From assembly GCA_964623585.1 (NCBI GenBank), contig CAZURU010000007.1, forward strand, positions 1 through 32,691: 32,691 bases of DNA, in the 5' to 3' direction. A program made the position numbers and the translations under genes. Below the pieces are notes generated by a model. It did not search any database, had not been told where the DNA came from, and was given only the letters and a program-made list of their open reading frames with translations. The first letter of the stretch is position 1. The number at the start of each line of letters is the position of its first letter. Positions 4,727-28,000 of the stretch are shown piece by piece. Origin of the DNA: an uncultured bacterium. Its GTDB lineage: Bacteria; Poribacteria; WGA-4E; WGA-3G.

Positions 4727-4798
4727 CGATTTCTACCCTTGTCAAAAATTTATTTCATAGTGTCTTATCAGTTTATCTGTTGCTACTTTTATTTTATC

Positions 4799-4827
4799 AT
4801 TATAGCATATTTATGTTGCGTAGTCAA
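4799..4827 (-). promoter_or_regulatory. Sigma70-type promoter for the giant gene
   Basis: The minus strand reads TTGACT (4827-4822), a 17-nt spacer, then TATAAT (4804-4799). This is ~70 nt upstream of the ATG at 4726. Confidence 0.5.
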
Positions 4828-4880
4828 GGTAAAAGGAGTCTGAGTTAAAATGATTAAAGTTGGTGATTGTTAGAACGGGA

Positions 4881-5006
4881 TTAACCACTATACCAAATCG
4901 GGAAAGCAAGTTCTTTCTTCTTAAGCCCTACCAACTCCGAAGCAAGATCACATTTCAAAATTTCATAATGCAAAGTTGGCAATTTCTTCAAGTCCGATAT
5001 TACGGA
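4881..5006 (-). pseudogene. 3-prime stub of a type IIG-like RM gene (paralogue of the C-terminus of the 990-aa protein)
   Basis: The minus-strand frame reads SVISDLKKLPTLHYEILKCDLASELVGLKKKELAFPIWYSG*. The 990-aa protein ends ...GITSDNVLESMQTLREML..KCDLDAELMGLKLKGVAFPSWYDG*. Hand alignment of the last 25 codons (4881-4955 vs 10262-10336) gives 60/75 identical nt. No start codon or N-terminal body is present. Confidence 0.65.
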
Positions 5007-5791
5007 TTAATCCTTACATTCCACACAGAAAGTTCACCTATAATTTCCTTGTCTGGAATTTTATCTAAATCCATTAAATCATATAGATCTTTTCCTAAAT
5101 ATGTTGGGGTTGCCAGAAGCATGTGACTCGCGCAAAATTTATAATCTTCAATTATTGGTGCTTGAGTTCCTGAAATTATATAATTTTTGATTAACTTTAA
5201 CATTTCTCTACTTATGTTATGAAATTTATGTTTATCATCTTGGTTCATTTGATTTATTTTTTTTGCTAATTTATCATCATCAACTGGATCGTATTCCCAT
5301 TTTCCATGTCCGTGGTCATACTCTATTATAAATTTGATAATACACAAACATCTATATGATATCGAATCTATTATATCAAAATATTCAAATGCACTCCCCG
5401 CATCTATTCTAGAGTTTTCCATTAGTTGTATATTTTTCCAAAAGGATCCGATATATCTACTTTTTTTACATTGAATGTCAAGTAGCATAGATTTTATGGT
5501 TCTATAAAATATTTTAGATGGGTTATTTGTAGTGTTTTCACTATACCAATCTGTCCTTAAAGATTTCTCTTGAAATTCGATATCATTTTGAGCTTGCTTT
5601 ACTGCTTCAACTATCGAATGTGTTATATTTTCCTTTATAAATTCTGGCTCATTGGGTAACATTCTATTAATAAGATTTTTTAAATGCTTAGGTATAGACT
5701 GCATTGTCTCTATATTAGAAACAAAACTTAATATTTCCTTAGCTGCTATTTCTTCAGTAGCTATTTCAATTAATTGCATAATTTCATTCAT
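5000..5791 (-). CDS. Hypothetical protein, 263 aa, extremely AT-rich orphan
   Basis: Long ORF in a very AT-rich stretch, with AAGGAG 15 nt upstream of the ATG at 5791. I recognise no motif. No HEPN Rx4-6H, P-loop or HExxH signature was seen. Confidence 0.55.
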   Translation of the reverse strand: MNEIMQLIEIATEEIAAKEILSFVSNIETMQSIPKHLKNLINRMLPNEPEFIKENITHSIVEAVKQAQNDIEFQEKSLRTDWYSENTTNNPSKIFYRTIKSMLLDIQCKKSRYIGSFWKNIQLMENSRIDAGSAFEYFDIIDSISYRCLCIIKFIIEYDHGHGKWEYDPVDDDKLAKKINQMNQDDKHKFHNISREMLKLIKNYIISGTQAPIIEDYKFCASHMLLATPTYLGKDLYDLMDLDKIPDKEIIGELSVWNVRINP

Positions 5792-5939
5792 TATATTATG
5801 ATATACTCCTTAAACGTTCACAATGGATAGTTTGTACTGCCAGCGGATACTCCTTTCAGTATATGGATATTATACAACAATCTTGTTTTAGAGAGGGTCC
5901 GAATTTCCGATGGTTGTACACCTAACAAACTCACTTGTG

Positions 5940-6262
5940 TGATGTCCGCTTTCCTTCACTAACAACTTTTTTTGTTCAGTTTTGAGTTGAAGTAAGGGAA
6001 CAACAGCGGATTACGGATTTTTCCCTTGTTCTTCTCGGGCCTTTAGGCAGAATTCCATATAATCCACAAAATGAGCACTTACTTTTTGTTGATTTTGAAG
6101 GAATATAGAATTGTGGCGTAGGCGTGTTATAACGTTACCGTGTGTAAACGTTGGTCAATCTCTTCTTGTGTTTTGCCATAGAACAGATTCTATACCTATA
6201 GGTGTTCCCTTGATAAGAACATCATCTTCAGCCAAAGAGTTGAAGTAATCTTCTATTTGCAT
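5940..6262 (-). pseudogene. Decayed DUF433 gene, paralogue of the C-terminal ~110 aa of the giant protein
   Basis: From the ATG at 6262: MQIEDYFNSLAEDDVLIKGTPIGIESVLWQNTRRD*, with TGA at 6155-6157. After a frameshift it reads EEIDQRLHTVTL*HAYATILYSFKINKK. A third frame reads FVDYMEFCLKAREEQGKNP*SAVVPLLQLKTEQKKLL. This is colinear with giant-protein aa 1303-1415 (QIEDY..IRIKGTRIGIETVLY..PEDIVDNYPTLRLEEVYATILYYL..LQFSQILREEYEKNPPSGVVRLRQLKAERQVV). There are at least 2 frameshifts and 2 in-frame stops. Confidence 0.65.
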
Positions 6263-6361
6263 GTTTAGATCTCTTAAGTTGAAATCAGCATTTGCTTCAT
6301 TTTACCAATGTGATTCATCTGATATAAACCTTAAACTGATGACTCATTAAAAGCACAAGAG

Positions 6362-7684
6362 TTACTCTAAAATAAAATTACCTTCTGCATCAAAGGCAGG
6401 AATCCATTTTTTCTCAAAACCAAAAGCCTCATATACCTCTTCGACTAACTTATAAGCAACATGATCTGGGACAAAATTTGAGTCAACAGTCCGTTTGGAA
6501 ACAATCGATTTTTGTTCCATGTATACATTTCTCTCGTCTTGAAATCCAGCAAATATAACATTGGATGGATTCCCTTTCGGTAACATAAATCCTTTAAGAT
6601 TATGATACTCTTGTTGGACAGAAATTCTTGAATTAATACCAGATGTCTCATAGATTGTCTTAACCAATCTCAGGAATGACACCGGGAATTCACATACTAC
6701 GAATGGATATAGCCACGGAGTGGAAATTCCTGACTCCTCACGTCTCCATTGAAATGTTCCAGAATTAAGTGGACAACGAACTTCAAGATAACCATTTTTT
6801 AATTGAATGATTTCCCCGCCGGTAACATTAGGACCTCTAATTCCCTCAAGCGAAAAGGATACTTCTCTTTCCAAGATTCCTGTCACGCCAAAGTTTCCGT
6901 AACGTCTATTTGGTGGATTAAATAAGATTCTACGTATATCCTCATTCTTTGTATTAACAACGTTAGGATTGAGGTTTTCAGGAACAGCGAGGATGCGGTA
7001 ATAAGGTTGACCTGACAGATCATTATCAAATCGCAATTTCATTAGATGAAGTAAATCTTTCGCTTCAAATTGTTCTAAAGGATCATCCTCAAGTGTCATG
7101 GAATTTCTTCTGTCTACATCCATGTTTCGTAATATTGTATCCAATTTTGCCTCCATCTGAGTCGTAATTGGGGGTTGATAACGCATTAATAGATCTTGAA
7201 TCAGCTCGGATATAGGAAATTCTCTTGTATCATCTCCATATCGCTTCACAAAATTGGTTGAGTTTTTCCATTTAAAACTGTGAGGACGCATTCCACTCTG
7301 CGGAATATGAATAATTACAAGATCAATATCTTTATTATTCCATTTCAGGGAGCAAGGCTCTACCTCAAAATTAGGGATTCGTGGATCAATATTTTGCAAG
7401 CAAATTCCCTTGATACTTTTAGCAATGTTTACAGCATCAGGTACTGGACAGAAACCTTGGGCAATCTTATTCTTTTCCGATATACCAATGATAATATAAC
7501 CTCCTTCTGCGTTGGCCATTGCTGTAACATCTTTGCAAATTTCGCGTTTTCGCTTATCAGCATCATTGGGATCTTCGGGATAATCTTGCTGTTTGAAGTC
7601 AATCCATAGGTTTTCTTCCTGTTTACCAATAAGATCCTTCAGTTCTTGGTCAGTAATATGAGAAATGGGACGATTTTCAAACAT
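6362..7684 (-). CDS. AlbA_2 (Schlafen-type divergent AAA DNA-binding) domain protein with unknown ~270-aa C-terminal domain
   Basis: The N-terminal ~150 aa (ELKDLIGKQEENLWIDFKQ ... ICKDVTAMANAEGGYIIIGISEKNKI ...) fit the AlbA_2 pattern. The ORF-track start at 7786 adds 34 Cys/hydrophobic residues with no RBS. The ATG at 7684 (MFENRP) has GGAG 13 nt upstream and is preferred. Confidence 0.7.
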   Translation of the reverse strand: MFENRPISHITDQELKDLIGKQEENLWIDFKQQDYPEDPNDADKRKREICKDVTAMANAEGGYIIIGISEKNKIAQGFCPVPDAVNIAKSIKGICLQNIDPRIPNFEVEPCSLKWNNKDIDLVIIHIPQSGMRPHSFKWKNSTNFVKRYGDDTREFPISELIQDLLMRYQPPITTQMEAKLDTILRNMDVDRRNSMTLEDDPLEQFEAKDLLHLMKLRFDNDLSGQPYYRILAVPENLNPNVVNTKNEDIRRILFNPPNRRYGNFGVTGILEREVSFSLEGIRGPNVTGGEIIQLKNGYLEVRCPLNSGTFQWRREESGISTPWLYPFVVCEFPVSFLRLVKTIYETSGINSRISVQQEYHNLKGFMLPKGNPSNVIFAGFQDERNVYMEQKSIVSKRTVDSNFVPDHVAYKLVEEVYEAFGFEKKWIPAFDAEGNFILE

Positions 7685-7811
7685 CGTTAAATTCAGACTC
7701 CTTTTTAAAGCAGTATCACTATGAACAAGTGAGCATGCCCTACAATATGCAAAGGTATGAACGAGTATAAACACAACTAAAGTCATGAAATTATCCTCTG
7801 TATGAGTATGT

Positions 7812-7928
7812 TTAGCGTGTTTTGTTTAAAGGATCAGGTTGTTTAACCTTGTGCTGTTGACTAATCACACCTTGGATACTCGGTTCAGTCCTTTCGTGTT
7901 TCAAGATAATACCATCAGTTAGTAACGC
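7812..7928 (-). pseudogene. Second 3-prime stub of a type IIG-like RM gene
   Basis: The minus-strand frame reads ALLTDGIILKHERTEPSIQGVIS..., against SLLIDVLGI...LREMLCAEPSIHGG in the 990-aa protein. At DNA level, cacaccttggatactcggttcag (7868-7890) matches cccaccgtggatactcggttcag (10348-10370) at 21/23 nt. The stub starts immediately after the stop codon (7929-7931) of the upstream remnant and diverges after EPSIQG. Confidence 0.55.
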
Positions 7929-8625
7929 CTAGTTTCGGTCAAATATACATTCACGAAGTTCCTCGTAGACCTTGGTTTCCTTCGTGATACATTTTGAGAG
8001 ATTCTTTTTGAACATATCTGTACTGATGTTCGTCTTTATACCACAAAACTTCTTTATTCGATCAATTTCATCTTTGACGTTTTGATTATTAATATCCGTA
8101 ACAAAGTTATCATAGTCTTCCTCACTGAACATTAGACCTTCAGACTGACAGTATTTTACTAGTATTTCTTTATCAAAGAGATAATTTTCTAATTCCCAAC
8201 GTCTGAGGACTCTATGGTGAGTTGGATTGTTAACCAAATAAAATTGACGATCCCCCTCTTGAACTAATTTTCCAGATGCCATATCACGATCTTTGAGTAC
8301 CCAAATTTCCATGTTTCGCAATTCCTTACCAAGAATTCGTATTGTTATGTCCCTTCGTTGATCCAGTTCGGTTTGTCCACCACTTGACACAAAAACAGTA
8401 TCGGGAAAATCACGAGAAAATATAATTTCGTAAATAGAATTCTGATTTTTCAGTACCGTATGAACGAAACTTTTGTAATTCTTGCTCAAAAGCATCAAAT
8501 ACAGAACTCTTTCCACACCCGTTTGGTCCAACCATAGCAACTATCTTTTTTGGTTGTTGCCCAAGATCAATCGTCAAATCATCAAATCGCTTAAATCCAG
8601 TCATTTTTACGGTGTTAATTCTCAT
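7929..8625 (-). pseudogene. Collapsed P-loop ABC-ATPase / Toprim (OLD- or PARIS AriA/AriB-like) remnant
   Basis: The ATG at 8625 has GGAGA 6 nt upstream. MRINTVKMTGFKRFDDLTIDLGQQPKKIVAMVGPNGCGKSSVFDAF is the N-terminus plus Walker A of SMC/OLD-type ATPases, but the frame stops at 8410 after 71 aa. The overlapping frame down to 7929 encodes ..IWVLKDRDMASG..HHRVLRRWELENYLFD.., resembling the C-terminal half of DUF4435/OLD-type Toprim domains. The 697-nt span is far too short for an intact member of either family. Confidence 0.5.
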
Positions 8626-8852
8626 TTTTATTCTCCATTTTAGATTGTAATTAATTATGAATTCACTTAGAATAATGGTTCCAATATCAAGATAGGAAAT
8701 TATTACTCATTGTAGACACTTGTGAAGTCAACCCATTCCAGCATAAGATAAAGGATCGGCTAACAATAAACATGTATAATTATACCATTAGGCGAAATAA
8801 ATGTCAAGGCAAATTACGAATATTACATAATATATTTATTATTATTTTCATC

Positions 8853-8881
8853 TTTACTTAGAAATAGTCATGTGGTATAGT
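8853..8881 (+). promoter_or_regulatory. Putative sigma70 promoter with extended -10 for the XRE/ImmA operon
   Basis: TTTACT (8853-8858), a 17-nt spacer ending in TGg, then TATAGT (8876-8881). This lies ~35 nt upstream of the ATG at 8917. Confidence 0.35.
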
Positions 8882-8916
8882 AAATACGGTATATCAACAC
8901 CTAAAGGAGCATAACT

Positions 8917-9327
8917 ATGAAATTAGGTCAACGCCTACGCCAGATCCGTAAGGGAAAGAAATTGACTCTTAAAGAACTGAGTCTACAAGCCAATATTTCA
9001 GTTCCATATTTGTCGGATATGGAACGTAGTGTTGTAAATCCATCAATTGACACACTTCAAAAGGTAGCAAAAGCGTATAACATGACCGTCAAAGATCTAA
9101 TTACCGATGTTGATGAACTTGGTGAATCAACATATGCGAATTACCCTGACGAATTTACATCATTTCTTAATGAGTATGAAACGACCTACAATATTGATAA
9201 TGATTGGAAAGAACTATTGATGAAAATTAACTTTCGGGGAAAACAACCCACAACTGTCACAGAATGGCTTGAGTTATATCTTTATCTCAAACGGATTTTA
9301 TCACCAGGAGAAGATAATAATGAATAG
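8917..9327 (+). CDS. XRE/Cro-CI family helix-turn-helix transcriptional regulator (136 aa)
   Basis: MKLGQRLRQIRKGKKLTLKELSLQANISVPYLSDMERSVVNPSIDTLQKVAKAYNMTVKDLI is a canonical HTH_3 pattern. AAGGAG lies 7 nt upstream of the ATG. Confidence 0.88.
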   Translation: MKLGQRLRQIRKGKKLTLKELSLQANISVPYLSDMERSVVNPSIDTLQKVAKAYNMTVKDLITDVDELGESTYANYPDEFTSFLNEYETTYNIDNDWKELLMKINFRGKQPTTVTEWLELYLYLKRILSPGEDNNE

Positions 9328-10156
9328 TGTACAAAAACAGATAATTCAATTGGTGCGAAACACCGTCAATACATATTCGTCAACGCCTATTCCAAATATT
9401 GATGAGATTTGTGATGGTTTAGGATTAGAAATTAGGGAAGATACCATTACAGACGGTAGAGACGGGATGATTGTTGACAAAACCAATATTATTATCAACT
9501 CTAAAATAAGATACGAAGAACGAAAAAGGTTTACAATATTTCACGAAATCATGCATTATCTAATTGATAATGACGACGATTTAATCTCTATACTAAACGC
9601 ATACACTCTTTATAAGGATGGTGAATATGATAGACAATTAGAGATATTTGCGAACATTGGAGCAGCTGAATTTCTGATGCCGAGTGAGGAATTAAGAAAA
9701 CTATATGAAGAAAAAGATTTTAATGTTGAGTTGATTCTCTATGCTGCCAAACTATTTAAATCTTCAACAATTGCTGCAACAATCCAACTTGCTCAAGTTG
9801 CACCAAATGAATGTATTACAGCTATTTGCGAATTTACGCAGGATAAAACAACTCTTATGCAATCCCAGATTATTACTCAGAAAGAAAAATCTCTCAAACG
9901 AAAGTTGCATGTAAGCTATGCTGCTTCGTCACCAAATGTTAAATACATGTTGGCAAAAAATACAGTTATTCCGGGTGATCATCTGATACAGGATGCTTTT
10001 TTACAAGATGTTCCAGTTGAAGGAAAAAGTTACGTTCCTTTTCGGAGTGGTAAAAAAATGCCTTGCTACTGTGAAGCATTGGCAGATGGTGACAGGATCT
10101 ATGCGTTATTCCATTTGACACCTCCACCGAATCCTGACCAATTGAGCCTTATTTAA
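9320..10156 (+). CDS. ImmA/IrrE family zinc metallopeptidase with ~130-150-aa C-terminal extension (278 aa)
   Basis: FTIFHEIMHYLIDND contains the HExxH motif in an ImmA/IrrE-like context. The ATG at 9320 overlaps the upstream stop (ATGAATAG) and has GGAG 9 nt upstream. The ORF-track start at 9269 lies inside the HTH gene and is rejected. Confidence 0.85.
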   Translation: MNSVQKQIIQLVRNTVNTYSSTPIPNIDEICDGLGLEIREDTITDGRDGMIVDKTNIIINSKIRYEERKRFTIFHEIMHYLIDNDDDLISILNAYTLYKDGEYDRQLEIFANIGAAEFLMPSEELRKLYEEKDFNVELILYAAKLFKSSTIAATIQLAQVAPNECITAICEFTQDKTTLMQSQIITQKEKSLKRKLHVSYAASSPNVKYMLAKNTVIPGDHLIQDAFLQDVPVEGKSYVPFRSGKKMPCYCEALADGDRIYALFHLTPPPNPDQLSLI

Positions 10157-10261
10157 GATTTTCTGTTGATGATATTAAATTTTAAGTACTTGAGGCATTA
10201 GGCATAGAAATGGAGTTTCGATTGCTTGATATGTATGGACTCATAGATCGTGTCTATTGGA

Positions 10262-13234
10262 TCAACCATCATACCAACTCGGAAAAGCAACTCCCTTCAG
10301 CTTAAGCCCCATCAACTCCGCATCGAGATCACATTTAGACTGCTTCCCACCGTGGATACTCGGTTCAGCGCAGAGCATCTCGCGAAGTGTCTGCATAGAC
10401 TCCAATACGTTATCACTTGTAATGCCCAACACATCAATCAACAGCGAACGGTCTAATTCCTCGCGTACAGGATCATGCGCGCATTCGTTAACTGGCAGCA
10501 TCCGTTTATATTTCAACCGTTCAAATATCGCCTCAGCATTTGCTAATGCCTCATAGGAGAGTTCACGGACATCCAGCGTAGGTAGTGTCCCTAAGGTATT
10601 GAGTGTTAGAATACCGCGACCCGCTTGTTGCTTTCCACTATGTATCCAATGGCACATTAAGCCCAATGTTGAGTTACACCACAGCGCGAAAGCGGTTTCG
10701 TGCTGTGGACTTTCAAATGCTACGTTAGTTATCCTGTTAACCCCAACCGAAGGTGCCGCCGTTACGAGTACCAGGGTTGAGTTGGCATTGAATCTCAAGT
10801 ACAAATTGTAATGAGCTCTACTGTTTTTAGTCAGGATTTTCCGAAGATTTTCTTCTGTGTTCCCACGCGGGATGCCTTTAGAGTCAGGTTCAACAAACAT
10901 TGATCGCTGAGTTTCACTTTTCAAACTCCATAGACAAGGATATCCATCGCCCTTGGCATCACCTTTAATCATGTCAAACGGTCCGTCTTTTCCATAGACA
11001 CTTTCTGGGTGCCATCCAACCTGCGCTATGTCCTCTACACGACACATAGGGACTTCAACATTAGTTGTTTGCATCGGTAAATATAGGACACCTCTTTGTA
11101 TGCTATATGCAGCCTGAATCAATGCCATCGATCGTACGCGCGACACTCCCCAACCCTCACCAAGTAAGAGTGGACAGTCTAACATTTGTCCAACAGTGTC
11201 ATTGCCAATTCTGATTATATCTCCGCCATTAGGCGCGTCTTCTAAGCGTCGTGTGCTGTCGTTTCGGTTAACATAGTTCGCAATTTCGACCGCTTCTAAG
11301 ATGCTCTGTGGTCGCCTGTTCAGGGATATGAATTTCCCTAGTCCTGTATCGGCACCCGTTCCTTTCTTTGCTACCACAATGCATTCTGCCATGCCAGTAT
11401 CCGCGGAGAACGCCGCGTCTTCTGCCTTTGCTTCGGCAATGGTAAGGACCATGACGTTGTGATATTCTATTGCCAACATGCCACGCATTTTTTGCATTGT
11501 AGATGACGTTAGAATTGTTGCTGGCAAAATGAAACCCATTGTGCCACCGTACTTAAGTTTCCTGTCTGCAAGGTCTACAAAATAGGATGCGAGTCCGCTC
11601 AAGCCATGTGCTATTCGCGAATCTTTACCTCGCAGTACTGCCTGCATTGCCTTCTTATCTACCTCTGGACGATCACTGCCCTGGAATGTGGTTTTTGGTA
11701 TACTACTACCTTGATCTGTTCCTGGTTTCGTAAAGGGTGGGTTTTGAATCACAATGTCAACATCACTATGCTGGAACGTCTGCTGGAGTTTGACTACGGT
11801 GTTCTCCTCACCGCCTACTTGTTCAGCCTCTGTATCAAACAGTTTCATATCATCAAGCAATTCCAATGAACCGATAGCGTAACCGCCACTATCCATGATC
11901 CCATAAGGTGCAGTTACTATTTGTGTGCCACCGATTTTGATGTCAGCATAGGTACTGGCAAGTGCTGCAGCAGTAAGGTGTGTAGCATTTGGCATAATAT
12001 CTACACCGCCAAGGTTCTCCTCTAACATTTTTTGATGGATCTCCCTGCCGTTGCCACCTGCTTGTTCATACAGAGACAAGATACGTTGATAGACTCCGTT
12101 GAGCAACGCGCCTGTGCCGCATGCAAAGTCTGCAACTTTCGGGAGTTTACCCTTCGGCAGTTCAGGCATCACAAGCGTAGAGAGCAACACCGCACTTTCG
12201 GGAAGTGTGTAGTTTGCTTTGACGTATTTTCTATCAGTGATGAGCTTCTGAAATACGATACCCGCGAGTTCGTGTATCTGTGCGATACCGGTATCAACAA
12301 GGTCTTTGGCAGCCTCACATAAGAGCCTTAAGATATGTTTGACAAGTTTGTCATCAGTCGCGAGTGCTTCAACGAGGTTACGCGCATCTTCAAAGATGGG
12401 ACGATAGTTAACCTTGAGGATTGTGTTCCAGTCATCAATAACATCAGCATAATCAATTGTCGGGAGGAGTTGACGGAGTGAGCGGACATATTCCATCTCT
12501 GTTTTACCAGCAAGGGAACTCTGAAACACAAAAGCATCGGTGATTATCAGTGCTGCCATACGGAGCGTTTGAATGTTGGGGATTCGCGATTCAGGGATCG
12601 CTCCTACAGAAGAATCTTCCTCAGAAAAGACCTCTTGGTGCAGAATAGTCTCAATTTTCTTGCCGATAGCAGGATGTTCAACGATAGCATCTTCAAGTAG
12701 GTAAGCTGCCTTATTGACGCTTTTCTCCATATCTTCAGCTGCCGCTTCAAGGTGAGAGTTCGGCATTGCACCGACGCGGAGTGCATTTGCTATGTCCGCA
12801 ACCGTACCTGTTGCCCATCCGTTTGCCGGGAAATGTCCAACGGTGTCACCCACGGTATTGACAAGCTTGTATTGGAGGTCATCCGCATCACGTAGTTGTG
12901 CGTTGATATCCCTTCCAGGCATCGTCTTAAATCGGTCAGGATATAGGATTGCCATGACGTTATTGAGGGTTTTTCCAACGACGTGGTATTCCGTTTCAAG
13001 TTCGAGAACAAGTCTGTCTTCTGCTTGGGTAATAAGATTCTTGGCATTCGTCGTGGTCAAAAACTTTGCTTCAATGCCGACAGGTTCTCTACCCCGTTCA
13101 ATAACGATAGCATCAAGTTCACTGTTGCCTTTAAAGAAGGCATTGACTTCGGTTTCGAGTTCCCATCCGTGACGCATGTGCCGTAAGATGTTCACTAATT
13201 CATTTGTGATTGTGGTTTCGCGTCTTTTTGGCAT
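10262..13234 (-). CDS. Single-chain restriction-modification enzyme candidate (type IIG/IIL-like): N-terminal PD-(D/E)xK-like nuclease, gamma-class N6-adenine methyltransferase, C-terminal target-recognition region (990 aa)
   Basis: SAM motif I DFACGTGALL (nt 12101-12130) precedes motif IV NPPF (nt 11732-11743), the gamma order. N-terminal ELDAIVIERGREPVGIEAKF gives D41-x13-E55-x-K57. About 480 aa follow NPPF. No separate methylase or specificity gene is adjacent. Confidence 0.75.
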   Translation of the reverse strand: MPKRRETTITNELVNILRHMRHGWELETEVNAFFKGNSELDAIVIERGREPVGIEAKFLTTTNAKNLITQAEDRLVLELETEYHVVGKTLNNVMAILYPDRFKTMPGRDINAQLRDADDLQYKLVNTVGDTVGHFPANGWATGTVADIANALRVGAMPNSHLEAAAEDMEKSVNKAAYLLEDAIVEHPAIGKKIETILHQEVFSEEDSSVGAIPESRIPNIQTLRMAALIITDAFVFQSSLAGKTEMEYVRSLRQLLPTIDYADVIDDWNTILKVNYRPIFEDARNLVEALATDDKLVKHILRLLCEAAKDLVDTGIAQIHELAGIVFQKLITDRKYVKANYTLPESAVLLSTLVMPELPKGKLPKVADFACGTGALLNGVYQRILSLYEQAGGNGREIHQKMLEENLGGVDIMPNATHLTAAALASTYADIKIGGTQIVTAPYGIMDSGGYAIGSLELLDDMKLFDTEAEQVGGEENTVVKLQQTFQHSDVDIVIQNPPFTKPGTDQGSSIPKTTFQGSDRPEVDKKAMQAVLRGKDSRIAHGLSGLASYFVDLADRKLKYGGTMGFILPATILTSSTMQKMRGMLAIEYHNVMVLTIAEAKAEDAAFSADTGMAECIVVAKKGTGADTGLGKFISLNRRPQSILEAVEIANYVNRNDSTRRLEDAPNGGDIIRIGNDTVGQMLDCPLLLGEGWGVSRVRSMALIQAAYSIQRGVLYLPMQTTNVEVPMCRVEDIAQVGWHPESVYGKDGPFDMIKGDAKGDGYPCLWSLKSETQRSMFVEPDSKGIPRGNTEENLRKILTKNSRAHYNLYLRFNANSTLVLVTAAPSVGVNRITNVAFESPQHETAFALWCNSTLGLMCHWIHSGKQQAGRGILTLNTLGTLPTLDVRELSYEALANAEAIFERLKYKRMLPVNECAHDPVREELDRSLLIDVLGITSDNVLESMQTLREMLCAEPSIHGGKQSKCDLDAELMGLKLKGVAFPSWYDG

Positions 13235-21779: not shown

Positions 21780-24200
21780 TTATTTTTTGTCTGGCTTTTT
21801 GGGTTTGGTCGGTTCCCACTTTGTTGTCCGATATTTCTCATTCACCTCTATATTGGGAGGATAGTGAATTTCCCAAACTTTAACGTCTATGCCATCACTT
21901 TCATTTGTTGGGTACACAGGCATGAATGCCTCACTATGTTCACCTCTGAATAGTTTTACAGCGAGACTATTCCAACCAATAGGTGGTATATAATAAGCCC
22001 TTTGCAATCTAATTTCAGGATCAAGGTATAAAACGACTCCGCCATTTTCAATATCCACAAAAACTTGAGAGGTAAGATTGCTAACAACATGCTGAACAGT
22101 TGCGTCAGATATTTTTTCCTGACGTTCACCAAGTTTTTGGGTTGTAAATTTATCTGCATCGCTTTCGTCTCTAAATTTTGTTGTTATCGCTAACGTTTCA
22201 GGTGTAGGACGGGAAATATCAATAAAGGATAACAAACATTCTTCGTCTCGTGATTGCATTCGGTGTGGTGTCCCGATCGGAGTTTCTGTTCGCGTTAACC
22301 GATAGGTTTTGAACTTCCTGTCACCGTTTTCATCGCTGCCAATAGATGAATAGTCTCTGGACCGAGATATCATAATTCGATCCGTCAACATCAGATGTGT
22401 GACTTTATATGTTTTTAAAAAGGAGAGTGCCTCTTGCTCGTTCTGTGCACAGAAGACATGTCGGAAAAAAAGAGATATCCGTTTTATGAACTGATCAGGG
22501 TCAATGATTGTACCTACATTGCCAAGGACATTTAGTTGTAGGCCATAAGTCCAATGTGCAGCCATGATAGATTCTTGTGGAAGTGTGTGTGTCATCCATT
22601 TATAAGCTTCTGTGTAACTATTTAGCCAGGGAATTGGAGGGTGTCCTCGGGCAGCATGAAATGACAGGTGTGCGTGTCCGCCAAAGGGCGGCCAGAAGAG
22701 AACAAGTATTAAAACGATAATAGTAATAGCTTTTGTGAAAAGTTGATCTTGTACCCTTTGGCAAACAATCTGCATGTCTTTGAGTTTTTGTATGAGGTGC
22801 GCGGAAGATATCCATAGGATCCATGCGGTACCATAGGCGAGCGGCATACCAACAAAGAAATCATTTCGTACAGCACTCCGTGATAGTCCTACCCATAAAA
22901 AAAACCATCCAAGCGTAGCGAATATAACAAGCTCATTTTCTGATTTTTCTTTTCGGAAGCTGGCAATTCCAAAAGATAAAACACTTAGAACTAACGAAAC
23001 GAAGAAAAGGATATTACATGTGCCTTCTCCAACCCATCCGTTGAGCTGATCCCGAAAGAACGTTGTTGCGGCAAACAGGGACAGAGATGCCGCTATCGGA
23101 ATTCCTTTTAATTTCCATGAATGGAGACTCGCTGCTATTAACCCGATACTACCGAAAACAAAAATCGTACCATGTCGATTCCACCAATATCGGAAATCGG
23201 GGTCGGTTAATTCCGCGATAGTCTTTATGAACTGGTTCTCATGAAACGGATATGCTGTTTCTTCTAAAGTATTAGCGTGCGTAACAATATAAACGATCCC
23301 CGCAGTAATGCTAAGTAACGTTAACCCCCAAGCCAGTTTTCGGGCATAAAGGTGTAATTGTTCTACGTGGGTCAGTAGCAGATATCTTATGCCGCGCAAT
23401 ATAAGGACTGCCAAGGGTGGAAAGAGCATAATCGCAACAAGGTGCGTATTAGAACTGTATCCACTTCGGTAGGCGGGGCTTATAAAATAGAGCCATGGAA
23501 CAAACATAAACACCCAGAGGACATACTCTATTAAGCGATCTTCTGTGTCTGTGGTACAAAATTTCCAAAGTTCTATACCTATTATAATTATTAGAAAGAA
23601 TCCAAATCCTTCCCAACTCATTCCGCCAAGGAAGACGATGACGCTGCAGAGAGCCGTTGTTACCCACCTTCGTCCTCCCGATTCCATTCGTTCCTTCCAA
23701 AGATAGCTGATCACCGCAAGAATACCGAACATCCAGCACCATGCGTCTCTGTCGCCGAATCCCGCTGCACTTCGAGCAATACTACCAGGTAAAGTCGCGA
23801 GTAGCAGGATAACAATAGCGGCGAAGTAGACTCCATGGACGCGAACTAGAAAAAGACATAACACACTGAGACCTATAATGAAACAGATACAGGGTAAGTA
23901 AACTTGGATATGGTATAATGTAAGCTTTGGAAATATCCATCCGATTGACTTATGAATATAAGCAATACCATAGGCATAGAGATACAAACGTTGTCCATTT
24001 TCTCTACCCTCCGGCAACCAACGGTGCATATCGCGAGCAGGAAGTATCCCGTGTTCAGCAATCTCTTGCGCCTGCAGAGCGTAGAGATAGGCATCATTAG
24101 AGGAATATTGATTGTCAGGTAATCTTTCAACACCTTGGATACGAATCCAGAAGGCAAGTAGCAAGATAGCACATAATAAGATTTTTTGATAGTGCTCCAT
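21780..24200 (-). CDS. STT3/PglB/AglB-family oligosaccharyltransferase homologue with degenerate WWDYG motif (806 aa)
   Basis: About 13 TM helices. The first-loop acidic motif is SSNDAYLYAL...D..WLPEG. AGFGDRDAW is a DxD-type motif. KTIAELTDP is a TIXE motif. HWTYGLQLNVLGNVGTIIDPDQF (HWTYG = nt 22542-22556) aligns with WWDYGYWI..GNRT..D. Confidence 0.7.
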   Translation of the reverse strand: MEHYQKILLCAILLLAFWIRIQGVERLPDNQYSSNDAYLYALQAQEIAEHGILPARDMHRWLPEGRENGQRLYLYAYGIAYIHKSIGWIFPKLTLYHIQVYLPCICFIIGLSVLCLFLVRVHGVYFAAIVILLLATLPGSIARSAAGFGDRDAWCWMFGILAVISYLWKERMESGGRRWVTTALCSVIVFLGGMSWEGFGFFLIIIIGIELWKFCTTDTEDRLIEYVLWVFMFVPWLYFISPAYRSGYSSNTHLVAIMLFPPLAVLILRGIRYLLLTHVEQLHLYARKLAWGLTLLSITAGIVYIVTHANTLEETAYPFHENQFIKTIAELTDPDFRYWWNRHGTIFVFGSIGLIAASLHSWKLKGIPIAASLSLFAATTFFRDQLNGWVGEGTCNILFFVSLVLSVLSFGIASFRKEKSENELVIFATLGWFFLWVGLSRSAVRNDFFVGMPLAYGTAWILWISSAHLIQKLKDMQIVCQRVQDQLFTKAITIIVLILVLFWPPFGGHAHLSFHAARGHPPIPWLNSYTEAYKWMTHTLPQESIMAAHWTYGLQLNVLGNVGTIIDPDQFIKRISLFFRHVFCAQNEQEALSFLKTYKVTHLMLTDRIMISRSRDYSSIGSDENGDRKFKTYRLTRTETPIGTPHRMQSRDEECLLSFIDISRPTPETLAITTKFRDESDADKFTTQKLGERQEKISDATVQHVVSNLTSQVFVDIENGGVVLYLDPEIRLQRAYYIPPIGWNSLAVKLFRGEHSEAFMPVYPTNESDGIDVKVWEIHYPPNIEVNEKYRTTKWEPTKPKKPDKK

Positions 24201-24432
24201 AGTGTATTACAACCGAAAGTTATATTGCCAATAGAATGTGATACCCACGTTTTTTCAGTTGTATCCTTGTAAGATAAAGCTTTTGTAAAAACACTGATGT
24301 TAGGCCTATTAGTTTTAAGAAATATCCGTTAATCGGTATTACTGAAAGTTTATATTGTATGTTGGGTTTCGCTTCACACTACCCATAGGTGTCATTTTAA
24401 GGATTTTACTAATATATGAACGAGACGTTATT

Positions 24433-24650
24433 ATGGACAAAGAAGTGTCTGAAATTACTGATAACGTAGAAGAACTAAATGCTGTTCTGAAAGAATCTAA
24501 GAATACGACTGAAAAGTATAGATTGCGTATGCTTTATCTGCCAAAAGTGGAGAAGCGAAAACGCGCATAGAAGTCGTACGCTTGCTCGGTATGTATTCCG
24601 GGCAGTTGCTGATGTGCCATAAATCTTTCAAACGCAAGAAAAATTCGTCC
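24433..24650 (+). pseudogene. Relic of a transposase-type HTH (IS630-like orfA N-terminus)
   Basis: MDKEVSEITDNVEELNAVLKESKNTTEKYRLRMLYL is followed, after a frameshift at ~24540, by SAKSGEAKTRIEVVRLLG. This resembles the (E)RL..LYLLK.G.a.T..EVA.LLG pattern of IS630-type HTH proteins. No DDE domain follows. Confidence 0.3.
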
Positions 24651-24825
24651 AGTTTACAAAAAAGTGATATAATCTTCATAGAGAACTCCGTTGTAAAGTT
24701 TGATTTACTTATTATACCAAAGGGGTTCTTATAAACAAACTCCTAATTTATTTCGAAACTCACGTTAAATATACTTTAATGTCATACAAAAAGTCAATAG
24801 AAATTTGCGATTAATTCAGAGGCAT

Positions 24826-25065
24826 TCAATTGTCGGTATTTATCCCGATTAGTTTTAATGCTTTTTTTGAATGTGCTGCAAAATAACGAAGTGCGTTTTC
24901 TATTTCTGTGTGTTCTGAAATGCGTAGCAAGCTTATTACAGTATTTCGTAATGCTGCCATGACTTATGGTATGCTACTACACCGAACTTGTGATACGTCT
25001 TCACCGAACAGCATATCCCGATTGCTAAGAGAGGCAGGTTCTCTATTTCCCAATGTCCGTGTCGG
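24826..25065 (-). pseudogene. C-terminal relic of an ISAs1-family DDE transposase
   Basis: The minus frame reads TLGNREPASLSNRDMLFGEDVSQVRCSSIP*VMAALRNTVISLLRISEHTEIENALRYFAAHSKKALKLIGINTDN*. This fits the (HWxIENrLHWvRDV)tFGEDxSqvRxGxxPxvMAaLRNxaIsLLR...AL.LLG tail of ISAs1-type transposases. There is an in-frame TAA at 24964-24966 and the frame is lost upstream of 25065. Confidence 0.5.
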
Positions 25066-25210
25066 AGTTCAAAATAACCTTGCTACGGATTCCTACAAAA
25101 AGTTTACACACACCTCAGGACCATCTGGTGACAAAAACTTGACACCCGCATTGCACAATTGCGAAAATTTATGTTGACTTTTGTATGAAATATAAGTATA
25201 ATTAATGTTA

Positions 25211-25226
25211 TCAATACCTTCGCCAA
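25211..25226. repeat. IS left terminal inverted repeat
   Basis: tcaataccttcgccaa, the perfect reverse complement of 26655-26670. Confidence 0.9.
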
Positions 25227-26579
25227 TTATCCGGGTTTTAATTCAGGTTGCATGTTGTGAATAGCACCGATTGATCCCAGATGTTCATTGATTTGCTGAA
25301 TAACAATAGGTTCAGGTTTTTGCGGAAGTATTTTTAATGTTTCGATCATATACTTCAATCCTCGGTAGTGTGCCTTAAGGTCTAAGACACTATACGGTGT
25401 ATTTTTGCAACGGTGCGTATCTATGAGTTTAGCACTCACATTGACCATAAACATTGAAAGGTTCACCGCATTGTTTACCGGTGTCTTGTTAACATTCATA
25501 AAACTTTGTAATCCCCAGTTTTGTTTTGCATCTCGGAAGTTGAACTCGATTTGAAAACGGAGTGAATAATAATCAACCATTTTTTCAGCGTCTAACGACA
25601 CATCAGAACTGAACAATAGAACATGTGCTTGTTGTTCCGTAGTCAAGTTTGTTTTGAGGATGCAAACTACATTTAGGGGGTCTGTGAACTTTTTGTGGCG
25701 TAGCTGCATTTGATACACTTCGGTTTTCAGATTTCCCTGTATATTGACAGAGACACAGTATTTAGGGTCAATCTGTCGTGGGTCGAAACGGTCTCCGTAG
25801 ATGCGTGGGGGTCCCTTTCCTGCGTAAGGTGTAATCGGTGGTAAATGCAGTGCAGCATCTATGCGTAGTTTTGAAATGAGGTGGAGCCCTGCTTGTTTCG
25901 TCATTTGAAGTGCGTTATTGTGTCCAAAATATCCATCAAGCACAAAATAACGAAGTGGGATTAGGTCTTTTATCTCTGGCAGTATAGACATTAGCATTGT
26001 ATTAAGTTGTTTCAAAATACCGGTAAGCACGACATCGTCTTTATTGCGGTTTCGGCTGCCTTTTGGACGCCCGGGTGGGCGTTTCGCTGTTGTTTCTGTA
26101 GTATCTTGTTGTTTTGGTTCAGAAGTGGCAGGTGCTGAAGATGTTTCGTCTCGGACGATTTGCTCTATAGCCATCGGATAAGAACGCCGTTCTGTGACAC
26201 CCACTATGGACATGGCTAAGAACGACACACCTGGGACCGTTTTCCCGTGTATAGAGGAAAAGAAACGGGATAAACCATAGGTATTTTTGCCTGATTTCGG
26301 CGTGACTGTTTCGTCTGCTACGAGGATATAATCGCTTTCAGGATCAAAGAGATGTGTGCGAAAAAACACCCAGCAGAGTGTTGTCCACGGCACAACCGCG
26401 TTGAAAAAGCGTTGTATAGTACGGTAGCTACCGCCTTCTGATGTCCAACGTGAGATATTTAACATTGTCACTCTTCCTGTCATCGCAAGTTGTGCAAATA
26501 CAATGTGCGATAACTGACGTATAAGCGTTATAGATAAATATGGAATAAAAACCTTAAACAGTGCTATAATTTGTTGCAT
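25227..26579 (-). CDS. DDE transposase, IS4 superfamily (450 aa from ATG 26579; alternative ATG at 26648)
   Basis: ILVADETVTPKSGKNTYG (first D region), YFVLDGYFG (second D) and YSLRFQIEFNFRDAKQ (the Y-2-R-3-E-6-K signature) are present. The ATG at 26579 has GAAGGA 9 nt upstream. The stop codon abuts IR-L. Confidence 0.9.
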   Translation of the reverse strand: MQQIIALFKVFIPYLSITLIRQLSHIVFAQLAMTGRVTMLNISRWTSEGGSYRTIQRFFNAVVPWTTLCWVFFRTHLFDPESDYILVADETVTPKSGKNTYGLSRFFSSIHGKTVPGVSFLAMSIVGVTERRSYPMAIEQIVRDETSSAPATSEPKQQDTTETTAKRPPGRPKGSRNRNKDDVVLTGILKQLNTMLMSILPEIKDLIPLRYFVLDGYFGHNNALQMTKQAGLHLISKLRIDAALHLPPITPYAGKGPPRIYGDRFDPRQIDPKYCVSVNIQGNLKTEVYQMQLRHKKFTDPLNVVCILKTNLTTEQQAHVLLFSSDVSLDAEKMVDYYSLRFQIEFNFRDAKQNWGLQSFMNVNKTPVNNAVNLSMFMVNVSAKLIDTHRCKNTPYSVLDLKAHYRGLKYMIETLKILPQKPEPIVIQQINEHLGSIGAIHNMQPELKPG

Positions 26580-26654
26580 GGGGGATTGTCCTTCAAAGTT
26601 ATTTGTAATTGTATCTATAACTTTAGGACATCTGCCCACTTTATTCAACTATTT

Positions 26655-26670
26655 TTGGCGAAGGTATTGA
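26655..26670. repeat. IS right terminal inverted repeat
   Basis: ttggcgaaggtattga, the perfect reverse complement of 25211-25226. Confidence 0.9.
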
Positions 26671-26828
26671 TGTTATAAGACACAATATTATATATGTCTT
26701 GTACCGATATATAGTGGTTAGTTTTTTACAAAAGGTTAACTGGCACTTCATAGGTTATACTAATAATACTATAGTTTGGACAGTTTCTATAATGACTTAA
26801 CTTAAGATTACAATAACTGTCTGCATAA

Positions 26829-26855
26829 CTATACACCTGTCGCCCCGCTGGGGCT
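26829..26855 (+). repeat. 27-bp hairpin repeat, copy A1
   Basis: ctatacacctgtcgccccgctggggct. The stem is gcccc/ggggc with loop gct. Identical to A2. Confidence 0.9.
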
Positions 26856-26879
26856 AAAGATTATTGTATATTTGCATTT

Positions 26880-26906
26880 CTATACACCTGTCGCCCCGCT
26901 GGGGCT
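26880..26906 (+). repeat. 27-bp hairpin repeat, copy A2
   Basis: Identical 27-mer, starting exactly 51 bp after A1. Confidence 0.9.
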
Positions 26907-26976
26907 GCTCTGTTCTATTAGTGAAGTTATATGGGGTTTAGAAACTCAGCGAAAATAGAAACGACATCAATGCGAC

Positions 26977-27003
26977 AGTCCCAGAGGGACGAAAGGTGTA
27001 TAG
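26977..27003 (-). repeat. 27-bp hairpin repeat, copy B1 (inverted orientation)
   Basis: agtcccagagggacgaaaggtgtatag matches 23/27 against the reverse complement of A. The stem is gtccc/gggac. Confidence 0.85.
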
Positions 27004-27027
27004 TAACATATTCGTATCTCAAACCTA

Positions 27028-27052
27028 AGCCCCAGAGGGGCGAAAGGTGTAT
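27028..27052 (-). repeat. Hairpin repeat, copy B2 (inverted orientation)
   Basis: agccccagaggggcgaaaggtgtat matches 23/25 against the reverse complement of A. It starts exactly 51 bp after B1. Confidence 0.85.
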
Positions 27053-27235
27053 TTCATTCATTACATAAGAAATGCATATTCTAATGAAGGATACAACAAA
27101 AAAAGATCTGAAAATTGTCCAAACTATAGTAATAATAAGTTATACTAATTATTATATGAAACGCCCATTATAATTATAATTGTTTTTAAAATTGTGAGCA
27201 AATCTATATTTTGCTCGGTGTAGAGGAGATTCCTG

Positions 27236-28000
27236 ATGTATCGTTATGCTCTCTTTAACAAATGGGTTATTAGCTGCGTTGGTTTCCTAATTTTGATTTC
27301 TGTTGCATGTTATTTATGGTATAAGCATGATACGGCAGATGGTAGAAGGGAATTAAATGAGGTAAAGGAAATGGTGCGCCGATATGAGGCAGCAAGAAAA
27401 TTATCCGATACGGACAGCGAAGCGGAACAGACTGTGGATATAGTACCTGCAGAAAGCGCGACACCAATCGCAGAGAAACCTATAACAAAAGTAAATGTTG
27501 AAGTTGAAAGTAATACGGAAACGGTAGAACAACAGCAATCTGAAACACCAACGGAAACCGCAACGGATGCAAAAGTCTCAGTGTCCCCAAATGGTTTTGG
27601 ACCCTATCCAGAAATTCCAGATGAGATGGGTATTCCAAAGGATAAGGAGAATAATTTTTGGGAGAATATCTCAAAGATTCCTAATCAAGAGTTACTCGCT
27701 CGTGTTCGAATTAAGTTATACCAACAAGGTATACAAGCTGATGGAGCAACTTATAAACGAAATGGACTCATTTATCCGGTTATAAATGGTATCCGTTACG
27801 TTGAATGGGATACACGTGAAAATCCTGACGGTAGTGTTGAAAGATATGTTGCTCGTTCTACGGGACATCCAGACGATGGTTTTAATGACATAACAAAGGG
27901 TGTCGTTTTAGAGTCTGATATACCAAGTCATTTTAAAATTTATACATACCCTGATGGGGGTATTGATCCCTACAAATTTTTAAATTTATCAAAGGAGTAA
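27236..28000 (+). CDS. Membrane-anchored hypothetical protein (254 aa)
   Basis: GGAG lies 7 nt upstream. There is one N-terminal TM helix (WVISCVGFLILISVACYLWY), then an acidic/Thr-rich linker, then a ~130-aa globular C-terminal region with no recognised motif. Confidence 0.7.
   Translation: MYRYALFNKWVISCVGFLILISVACYLWYKHDTADGRRELNEVKEMVRRYEAARKLSDTDSEAEQTVDIVPAESATPIAEKPITKVNVEVESNTETVEQQQSETPTETATDAKVSVSPNGFGPYPEIPDEMGIPKDKENNFWENISKIPNQELLARVRIKLYQQGIQADGATYKRNGLIYPVINGIRYVEWDTRENPDGSVERYVARSTGHPDDGFNDITKGVVLESDIPSHFKIYTYPDGGIDPYKFLNLSKE

Follow-up and report, generated by a model that had tools for sequence, protein, structure and literature searches.

A probable miniature transposon of Candidatus Poribacteria with IS701-family ends and a cargo of REP hairpins linked to a Y1 transposase

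The element and its internal architecture

The stretch of DNA considered here (the window) comprises 32,691 nucleotides of contig CAZURU010000007.1 (assembly GCA_964623585.1), from an uncultured bacterium of the Poribacteria lineage. Within it a short non-coding element occupies positions 26768-27130, between an insertion sequence (IS) of the IS701 family and two open reading frames (ORFs) of unknown function that specify proteins of 254 and 182 amino acids. Comparison with related loci, cited below by working labels (L followed by a number), indicates that the element is very probably a non-autonomous DDE-type miniature inverted-repeat transposable element (MITE) of Candidatus Poribacteria, with ends of the IS701 family and with a cluster of repetitive extragenic palindromes (REPs) as its cargo, the REPs being cognate to a Y1 transposase of subclass 1.2.

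The limits of the element were set by comparison with copies elsewhere, and give a length of 363 bp. Homology among the copies starts at 26767/26768 and stops at 27130-27137; the match to L017 (96% identity) begins at 26767, and those to L053 and L109 extend as far as 27137. The element is closed on both sides by terminal inverted repeats (TIRs), the left one, ACTATAGTTTGGACAGTTT, at 26768-26786 on the plus strand and the right one, the reverse complement ACTATAGTTTGGACAATTT, at 27112-27130 on the minus strand. Of the 19 positions of each end, 18 agree between left and right, and in its full extent the inverted repeat covers 26 nt at 88% complementarity. The 15-nt TIR core ACTATAGTTTGGACA, at 26768-26782 (+) and 27116-27130 (-), recurs unchanged at the ends of IS701-family ISs in L211-L219 and occurs twice in the window against 0.08 expected, a count reached in 0 of 100 shuffles. 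ORFs within the element are just 44-45 amino acids long, and no transposase gene is present.

Four hairpin repeats are arranged inside these ends as two convergent doublets. On the plus strand, repeat A1 (26831-26855) consists of an unpaired tag, ATACACCTGTC, a stem of GCCCC (26842-26846) and GGGGC (26850-26854) around the loop GCT, and a final T; repeat A2 (26882-26906) is identical and lies 51 bp downstream, the two forming identical 27-mers with 25-nt cores. On the minus strand, repeat B1 (26977-27001) carries the stem variant GTCCC/GGGAC, a compensated pair change, and repeat B2 (27028-27052), again with GCCCC/GGGGC, lies 51 bp from B1, so that both pairs are spaced exactly 51 bp start to start. 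The 25-mer has three hits in the window at three or fewer mismatches against 0.00 expected, the fourth copy, B1, differing at four positions. The 70-nt centre between the doublets (26907-26976) is kept in a sub-family that includes L017, L065, L088, L109 and L006. Folded as a single strand, the whole element forms a long imperfect hairpin of -64 kcal/mol (z = -8.7 against shuffles). An earlier reading of the window, made by a model from the letters alone (the sequence-only reading), had described the TIRs, an 11-bp flanking direct repeat and the 2+2 convergent hairpins at a 51-bp period; all of these are present and are not attributable to chance, and the length of 374 bp that it gave is corrected to 363 bp.

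Target site and uninterrupted homologue

The element is directly abutted by a 6-bp target-site duplication, AATAAT, at 26762-26767 on the left and 27131-27136 on the right. The longer direct repeat gttatactaat lies further out: its left copy (26754-26764) falls within an imperfect 17-18 nt duplication at 26750-26767, and its right copy (27139-27149, within 27135-27152) starts 8 nt past the element end. The 11-bp repeat is real, but it is not the immediate target duplication, since AATAAT abuts both ends; its right-hand copy is part of an imperfect duplication of about 17 nt rather than a canonical target duplication.

The closest homologue of the 254-aa ORF, P0003 (76% identity), is encoded on a 5.43-Mb chromosome (locus L208). 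Orthologues of this ORF are not syntenic, yet in L208 the DNA upstream of the homologue can be aligned with the window on either side of the insertion point, across which it runs without a break (AGTAGTTATACTAATAATTTATGAAAC). An empty site with a single gttatactaat, which the sequence-only reading had proposed to look for, is thus provided by this uninterrupted homologous site. What the window has beyond the L208 site is the MITE, the duplicated 6 bp and one more imperfect copy, about 17 nt long (ATAGGTTATACTAATAAT versus ATAAGTTATACTAATTAT). The simplest account of the flanks, as aligned, would be that 16 nt of the target were duplicated in tandem and that the MITE inserted with duplication of AATAAT, presumably in that order.

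Copies at other loci and an autonomous partner

Copies of the MITE with 84-96% identity and unrelated flanks are found in other Poribacteria metagenome-assembled genomes (MAGs), at L017, L065, L088, L109, L006 and L053. Of the 34 distinct pairs of window-type ends in all the loci retrieved, 18 have an exact, AT-rich direct repeat of 6-9 bp on either side (6 bp in six pairs, 7 bp in eight, 8 bp in three and 9 bp in one). A metagenome scan with the 19-mer end added to the number of MITE copies and revealed IS ends at the edges of contigs; an intact IS was not among its hits, and was reached through protein homologues instead. Two Logan assemblies that contain the downstream ORF both break at window position 27104, inside the right end, as is expected of a repeat.

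A pair of ends of the same type at L208 (4793-7219) encloses a transposase with DDE_5 and DDE_Tnp_1 domains that is interrupted by an IS630-like insertion. With the fused transposase as query, about 666 homologues were recovered, and many of these are intact, with lengths of 421-427 amino acids. Autonomous ISs of 1.51-1.57 kb, each with one ORF and ends of the form ACTATAGTTTGGACA(A/G)TTT, are present at L211, L212-215, L216/217 and L218/219. The copies at L211 (908-2418), L212 (904-2432), L216 (592-2131, with the duplication AAAGTTAT at L216/217) and L218 (604-2169, with the duplication AGAATA at L218/219) all have ACTATAGTTTGGACA at their ends and encode a DDE_5 plus DDE_Tnp_1 protein. The partner transposase, of 421-426 amino acids, is placed in the IS701 family by NCBIfam, with borderline scores for model NF049999 (172.8 bits for P0121 and 168.4 bits for P0124, against a cut-off of 170). 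The parent element with a transposase that had been proposed as a check is thus a 1.5-kb IS701-family IS with the same ends in related genomes; the statement that no cognate transposase is evident holds within the window but not beyond it. The 19-bp ends alone are common to the MITE and its partner and, judging from the sequences compared, the interior of the MITE is not derived from the partner IS.

On the sequence evidence, the window element is a MITE: it has TIRs and an abutting duplication, it is small and has no transposase gene, copies of it and an empty site are found elsewhere, and an autonomous element has the same ends. The miniature transposon proposed in the sequence-only reading is borne out by the inverted ends, the target duplication, the copies at other loci and the homologous site with a single gttatactaat.

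The IS that adjoins the element in the window (25210-26671, minus strand) encodes a 473-aa transposase (Pfam DDE_5, NCBIfam IS701) and has perfect 17-bp ends, ATCAATACCTTCGCCAA. Its transposase shares only 21-25% identity with that of the partner IS, so this IS and the MITE are not partners, in agreement with the earlier remark that the ends of the neighbouring IS are unrelated. This IS is flanked on both sides by a 3-bp GTT repeat, and an end related to it truncates a window-type MITE copy at L088 (about 7620-7640).

Several further arrangements were encountered among the fetched loci. Two candidate elements were rejected: a 1640-bp "element" at L112, considered as a parent, proved to be a MITE into which an IS630-like element had inserted at a REP spacer, and 2.2 kb between two end sequences at L084 is an msrA gene between two MITEs. 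The IS630-like element at L112 (1623-2842) encodes a 384-aa transposase, has the ends TACCAAATTAACG and lies in the spacer that separates the two repeats of a REP doublet within the MITE. At L053 (420-870, reverse strand) an insertion of about 470 bp interrupts a window-type MITE within the loop of REP B1; the inserted DNA is bounded by inverted ends of its own, TGAAGATTAA...TTAATCTTCA, and is packed with GTAGG-type repeats in tandem. In L208 (3221-3345 and 4793-7228) the 9-mer AGCGTAATT flanks both a 116-bp mini-MITE, at its left end (3230), and the interrupted IS, at its right end (7219), and the homologue of the window's 254-aa ORF lies between the two. This layout suggests either that an inversion took place between the elements or that they form a composite unit, about 4 kb in size. 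A scan of viral contigs with the 15-mer end gave 48 single hits, judged to be chance, with no pairs and no hairpins.

The hairpin motif as a REP and its Y1 transposase

A scan of the genome collection with the hairpin motif, which is phylum-wide, returned more than 116 stretches; the statistics that follow rest on the matches listed, all of which lie in Poribacteria MAGs. Among them, same-strand neighbours number 153, and in 116 of these cases the distance is 50-51 bp. The repeats occur mostly as head-to-tail doublets at this spacing, convergent quadruplets (++--) are common, and the number of repeats per element varies from 2 to 6. The spacers within doublets are fixed in length, variable in sequence and end in TNCT. 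The 11-nt tag ATACACCTKTC is conserved across 137 distinct variants, as are the loop KCT and the final T, and the 5-bp stem undergoes compensated changes (GCCCC/GGGGC, GCACC/GGTGC, GTCCC/GGGAC and GCCTC/GAGGC). Doubly changed cells number 65 against 14.3 ± 3.0 in shuffles, a value reached by 0 of 500 shuffles; the signal collapses once the partner columns are slid, and the stem is paired in 94.9% of cells. This covariation argues for a structure rather than a double-stranded DNA site.

The motif is tied to a transposase gene by its position. At L021 (3737-4210) a 157-aa ORF matches Y1_Tnp (PF01797, E = 1.3e-27); five REPs on the minus strand lie upstream of it and REPs on the plus strand lie downstream, the first overlapping the stop codon. 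Both flanks are occupied in the same arrangement at L172, whose Y1 protein is 88% identical, and the partial locus L015, which contains the 5' end of the Y1 gene and an upstream four-repeat array alone, is concordant. Loci L220-L222 were chosen in three further genomes through the Y1 protein alone (P0254, P0268 and P0341). In these the upstream REPs end 16-24 nt before the ATG, and the downstream REPs overlap the stop codon or begin 18 nt after it. Inverted-orientation REPs are thus present on both flanks of the Y1 gene in five of five complete loci (L021, L172, L220, L221 and L222). By its layout this is the REP-Y1-REP arrangement of a REPtron, and the hairpin motif is very probably the cognate REP of the 157-aa Y1/HUH transposase. 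The sequence-only reading had offered, as its second choice, a cluster of REPs or of the related bacterial interspersed mosaic elements (BIMEs), boxed in by TIRs, with a REP-associated tyrosine transposase (RAYT) or Y1 enzyme as parent, and it is this alternative that the flanks of the Y1 gene in the five complete loci and in L015 bear out.

The translated Y1 gene contains DHIH, WQ and YIKNQEAHH in 157 amino acids, and these signature motifs would place the enzyme in TnpAY1 subclass 1.2, for which Table 1 of PMC6006769 gives DH[IV]H, WQ, YIKNQKEHH and a length of about 148 amino acids. Subclass 1.2 was described as low-copy, from Cyanobacteria and Bacteroidetes, and without REPs (Quentin et al. 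2018, PMC6006769). If the motif-based assignment is followed, the Poribacteria loci depart from that description in that a subclass 1.2 gene occurs in Poribacteria and is flanked by REP arrays, and a literature search found no report of REPs for subclass 1.2, or of such repeats or MITEs in Poribacteria. Most clusters of the Y1 protein at 90% identity are each represented on a single contig, which, as gauged from protein clusters, suggests a low copy number.

Poribacteria also contain a classical RAYT (L034, 1-900), which was found by tblastn with an E. coli RayT sequence as query and which scores 199.9 bits with NF047646. It was rejected as the partner of the motif because its flanking REPs are of the GTAGG type (for example CGTAGGTTGGGTTGAG), a separate family that is also scattered over many other loci. 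A neighbourhood approach, in which 819 neighbouring ORFs were clustered, enriched neither a transposase nor a cas partner, and enriched sulfatases, oxidoreductases and similar proteins instead. In certain MITEs with window-type ends, at L106 (1500-1600) and L174 (2760-2860), the hairpin doublets are divergent: the tag reads ATAGACATA and the stem, GCACTCC/GGAGTGC, is 7 bp long. They may be the REP of another Y1 paralogue.

REPs as cargo of several MITE families

The window element is one of several settings in which this REP is found. Among 118 evaluable REP clusters, 10 lie between two window-type ends, 27 between ends of a second type, CCATAGGCGTCAATTTAG, and 3 between mixed ends, while 28 have a single nearby end and 50 have no ends within 300 bp. 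Ends were assigned by motif-based counting, which replaced a generic inverted-repeat finder that under-called them. The second MITE family is represented at L083 (1780-2350), L105 (6650-7100), L061 (3760-4140), L021 (4255-4520) and L010 (about 3215-3675). Its duplications are unusually long, at 17-20 bp (TGGTGCGCTGCTATACA in L021 and AACGCCCTTTGGCGTTCC in L105), and in L010 and L021 it is inserted within REP arrays at the same motif position, between ATACA and CC. A third end type, TAAGAGCCTGTTTGAA, was seen in three pairs that enclose REP units, at L043 (5237-5494), L047 (5827-6108) and L095 (7064-7278). As classified by these ends, the window element is one of several DDE-type vehicles that carry the REP, with at least two MITE families among them.

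Alternative explanations

It is conceivable, although improbable, that the doublets act chiefly as RNA, as mRNA stabilisers, processing sites or small RNAs, with the MITE a mere vehicle and the link to the Y1 enzyme historical; proposals of this sort exist for REPs and for the Correia or BOX elements. Stable covarying hairpins would be in keeping with such a role, as would a placement that is nearly always intergenic (7 clusters lie inside ORFs and 92 have an ORF on either side, a further 40 being close to the edge of a locus), and RNA-level roles are known for REPs elsewhere (PMC3733652). The motif is asymmetric, yet it shows no orientation bias towards the flanking genes (17 same-strand versus 16 opposite, for single-orientation clusters between co-directional genes). 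No T-run follows the stem, the single terminator-like hit is weak, and an Rfam search at gathering and permissive thresholds gave no real match, the miRNA and snoRNA hits falling so far below their gathering scores as to be meaningless.

The sequence-only reading preferred to see the four hairpins as subterminal binding sites of the MITE's own transposase, phased on one face of the DNA as in Tn7, Mu or eukaryotic elements of the Ac/Ds type. This is now very unlikely, even though the repeats always face inward from the nearest end, 63-83 bp away from it, and the 50-51 bp phasing corresponds to about five helical turns. The hairpin motif, sought with up to 6 mismatches, is absent from IS loci L210-L219, and since the autonomous IS with identical ends does without the repeats they are not binding sites of that transposase. 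Up to three different stems, each still paired, occur in one element, so the stem is not read as double-stranded DNA. Moreover, 42% of REP clusters are without either end type within 300 bp, 27 of 118 lie between the unrelated ends of the second MITE family, and the motif flanks the Y1 gene in every complete locus and on the single visible flank of a sixth.

An extremely unlikely explanation is that the element is a single-copy regulatory palindrome or promoter of the operon that starts at 27236. The 254-aa ORF begins 105 bp beyond the MITE, whose right end is spanned by a weak promoter-like match that points outward (27108-27136). The sequence-only reading would have regarded the element as a local palindrome had it been single-copy, with no relatives and no empty site; it is instead multi-copy across genomes, and the homologous L208 upstream region is uninterrupted and does not contain it. 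A block conserved upstream of homologous genes, TATGAAAC...TTATAATT...AGCAAATCTATATTTTGC (27153-27220, plus strand, aligned with L208 and L209), lies outside the element and intact downstream of the insertion, so the MITE is not the source of the core upstream signals. Promoter-like matches number 4 against 3.0 ± 1.9 in shuffles and are not in excess, and the promoter role that had been suggested for the element is thus unsupported.

Finally, the notion of a CRISPR-like mini-array, prompted by a repeat-spacer-repeat layout with a hairpin repeat of 25-27 nt, variable spacers of a fixed length of about 24 nt and 5-6 units in L010 and L021, has next to no chance of being right, given that no cas or other recurrent gene besides ordinary metabolic genes lies near the clusters, that the spacers of the long arrays are identical (L010) or visibly related (L021) and so point to tandem duplication rather than acquisition, and that most clusters have two repeats, with the motif inside transposons and flanking a Y1 gene.

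Genomic setting

Beyond the 254-aa and 182-aa ORFs lie genes for fucose activation and glycosyltransferases. The 254-aa ORF belongs to a large Poribacteria-specific paralogous family (226 hits) with no Pfam match, and a conserved palindrome of the form (G/A/C)AGCAAA-TCTATAT-TTTGC(T/C) lies upstream of it and of its homologues (window 27185-27215, L208 about 3925-3950 and L209 about 3800-3830), where it may be an operator. On the far side of the neighbouring IS, about 1 kb of short broken ORFs (24200-25200), bounded by an 806-aa ORF, may be a decayed element. A defence-like cluster at 398-13234 includes a PIN-TPR-GreABC system protein (1442 aa), a Schlafen/AlbA_2 protein, an HTH and M78 peptidase pair, and an Eco57I-like methylase/restriction protein.

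A model for nested mobility

In the model favoured here, of a MITE with IS701-family ends and a REP cargo, two mobility systems would be nested in one element. An IS701-type transposase of 421-426 amino acids, acting in trans, would move the 363-bp unit by cut-and-paste into an AT-rich site and duplicate AATAAT, as is inferred from its family. By analogy with the TnpA proteins of IS200/IS605 (IS608) and with E. coli TnpA-REP, the Y1 enzyme would bind the REP hairpin in single-stranded DNA, read the tag and cut nearby, and the 50-51 nt phasing of the doublets may, speculatively, reflect the joint engagement of two hairpins. REPs would thus hitchhike in a DDE vehicle, and the window copy would last have moved by the DDE route.

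Several observations weigh against this model. The partner IS and the Y1 gene are located in related genomes and not within the 32.7-kb window. Exact duplications are absent in three of six distinct IS-length end pairs and in about one third of the MITE pairs, and a second, undocumented event would be needed to account for the additional imperfect duplication, some 17 nt long, that surrounds the window copy. The REP is without the classical GT[AG]G tag, the foot of its stem being K-T/C-C-G, preceded by ATACACCT. NCBIfam puts the Y1 enzyme in IS200/IS605 (75.8 bits, cut-off 55), the REP-associated model NF047646 gives it 35.1 bits, below the cut-off of 80, and it does not match the class 2 Y---NP motif. 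Mobilisation in trans and the processing of the REP by the Y1 enzyme are both argued from what is known of the respective families, and any route by which REPs entered the MITE is speculative.

A broader reading, to which we would give slightly less than even odds, is that the system represents a previously unrecognised kind of REPtron, in which a non-GTAG REP, cognate to a subclass 1.2 enzyme, multiplies as phased head-to-tail doublets and has repeatedly been taken up as cargo by DDE-type MITEs, with at least two and perhaps three unrelated families of ends. Were this so, a large share of the spread of the REP would be due to a second transposition system and not to the Y1 enzyme itself. REPs are among the most abundant non-coding repeats of bacteria, and the mode of their spread is still debated; REPs inside cut-and-paste MITEs could spread without a Y1 enzyme, two systems of mobile DNA being nested within 363 bp. 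Partnerships between REPs and Y1 enzymes would also be extended to a subclass thought to be REP-less and to an uncultivated phylum of sponge symbionts, and the strictly phased head-to-tail doublets should constrain models of how a Y1 dimer engages its hairpins. In practical terms, the repeats break Poribacteria assemblies, the Logan contigs stopping inside the element.

Comparison with known systems

The partner transposase resembles those of the IS701 family in matching DDE_5, DDE_Tnp_1 and the NCBIfam IS701 model, and its element in being 1.5 kb long, with a single ORF between short inverted ends. In ISfinder the target duplication typical of IS701 is 4 bp. The duplications found here are 6-9 bp, and the NCBIfam score is borderline.

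Among bacterial MITEs, modular interiors are known from the pneumococcal BOX elements (boxA-(boxB)n-boxC), the Neisseria Correia/NEMIS elements and the cyanobacterial Nezha elements. The Poribacteria element is like these in being short, non-coding, strongly structured and intergenic, with TIRs, a target duplication, modules in variable number and an IS transposase that would act in trans. It differs in that the internal module belongs to a distinct, HUH-type system, and in that the identified partner, of the IS701 family, has the 19-bp ends alone in common with it.

The cargo is most readily compared with REPs and their transposases, the RAYT or TnpA-REP proteins, and with the REPtrons and REPINs that they form (Nunvar 2010; Bertels & Rainey 2011, PMC3116915; Ton-Hoang 2012; Quentin 2018, PMC6006769). 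In both cases the unit is a short hairpin, rich in GC, whose unpaired tag is conserved and which is present in many intergenic copies, a Y1/HUH gene lies between inverted repeats, and a genome may contain several REP families, each with its own enzyme, to which Poribacteria add the classical RAYT of L034. The differences are in the tag, ATACACCTKTC rather than GT[AG]G, in the enzyme, which has the Y---Q--HH of subclass 1.2 rather than the Y---NP of class 2, and in the units, which are chiefly head-to-tail doublets at 50-51 bp and in many cases lie inside DDE-type MITEs. Known REP dimers are head-to-head or tail-to-tail, the head-to-tail arrangement being described as negligible (PMC3733652), so that the doublet architecture seen here is unusual.

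With IS200/IS605 the Y1 protein shares a small size (157 amino acids) and a score above the NCBIfam cut-off (75.8 versus 55 bits) and, by analogy, would share the action on hairpins; the flanking hairpins are, however, inverted rather than direct and occur in arrays, and there is no tnpB gene. The clusters also resemble the BIMEs of E. coli in the fixed length of their spacers. BIMEs alternate the orientation of their REPs, with defined linker motifs. In the Poribacteria clusters, by contrast, successive units are co-oriented, and opposite orientation is found just between the two doublets. As far as these comparisons reach, the element joins two known kinds of mobile DNA in a new way, and its REP family is tied to a Y1 subclass for which no REP was previously known.

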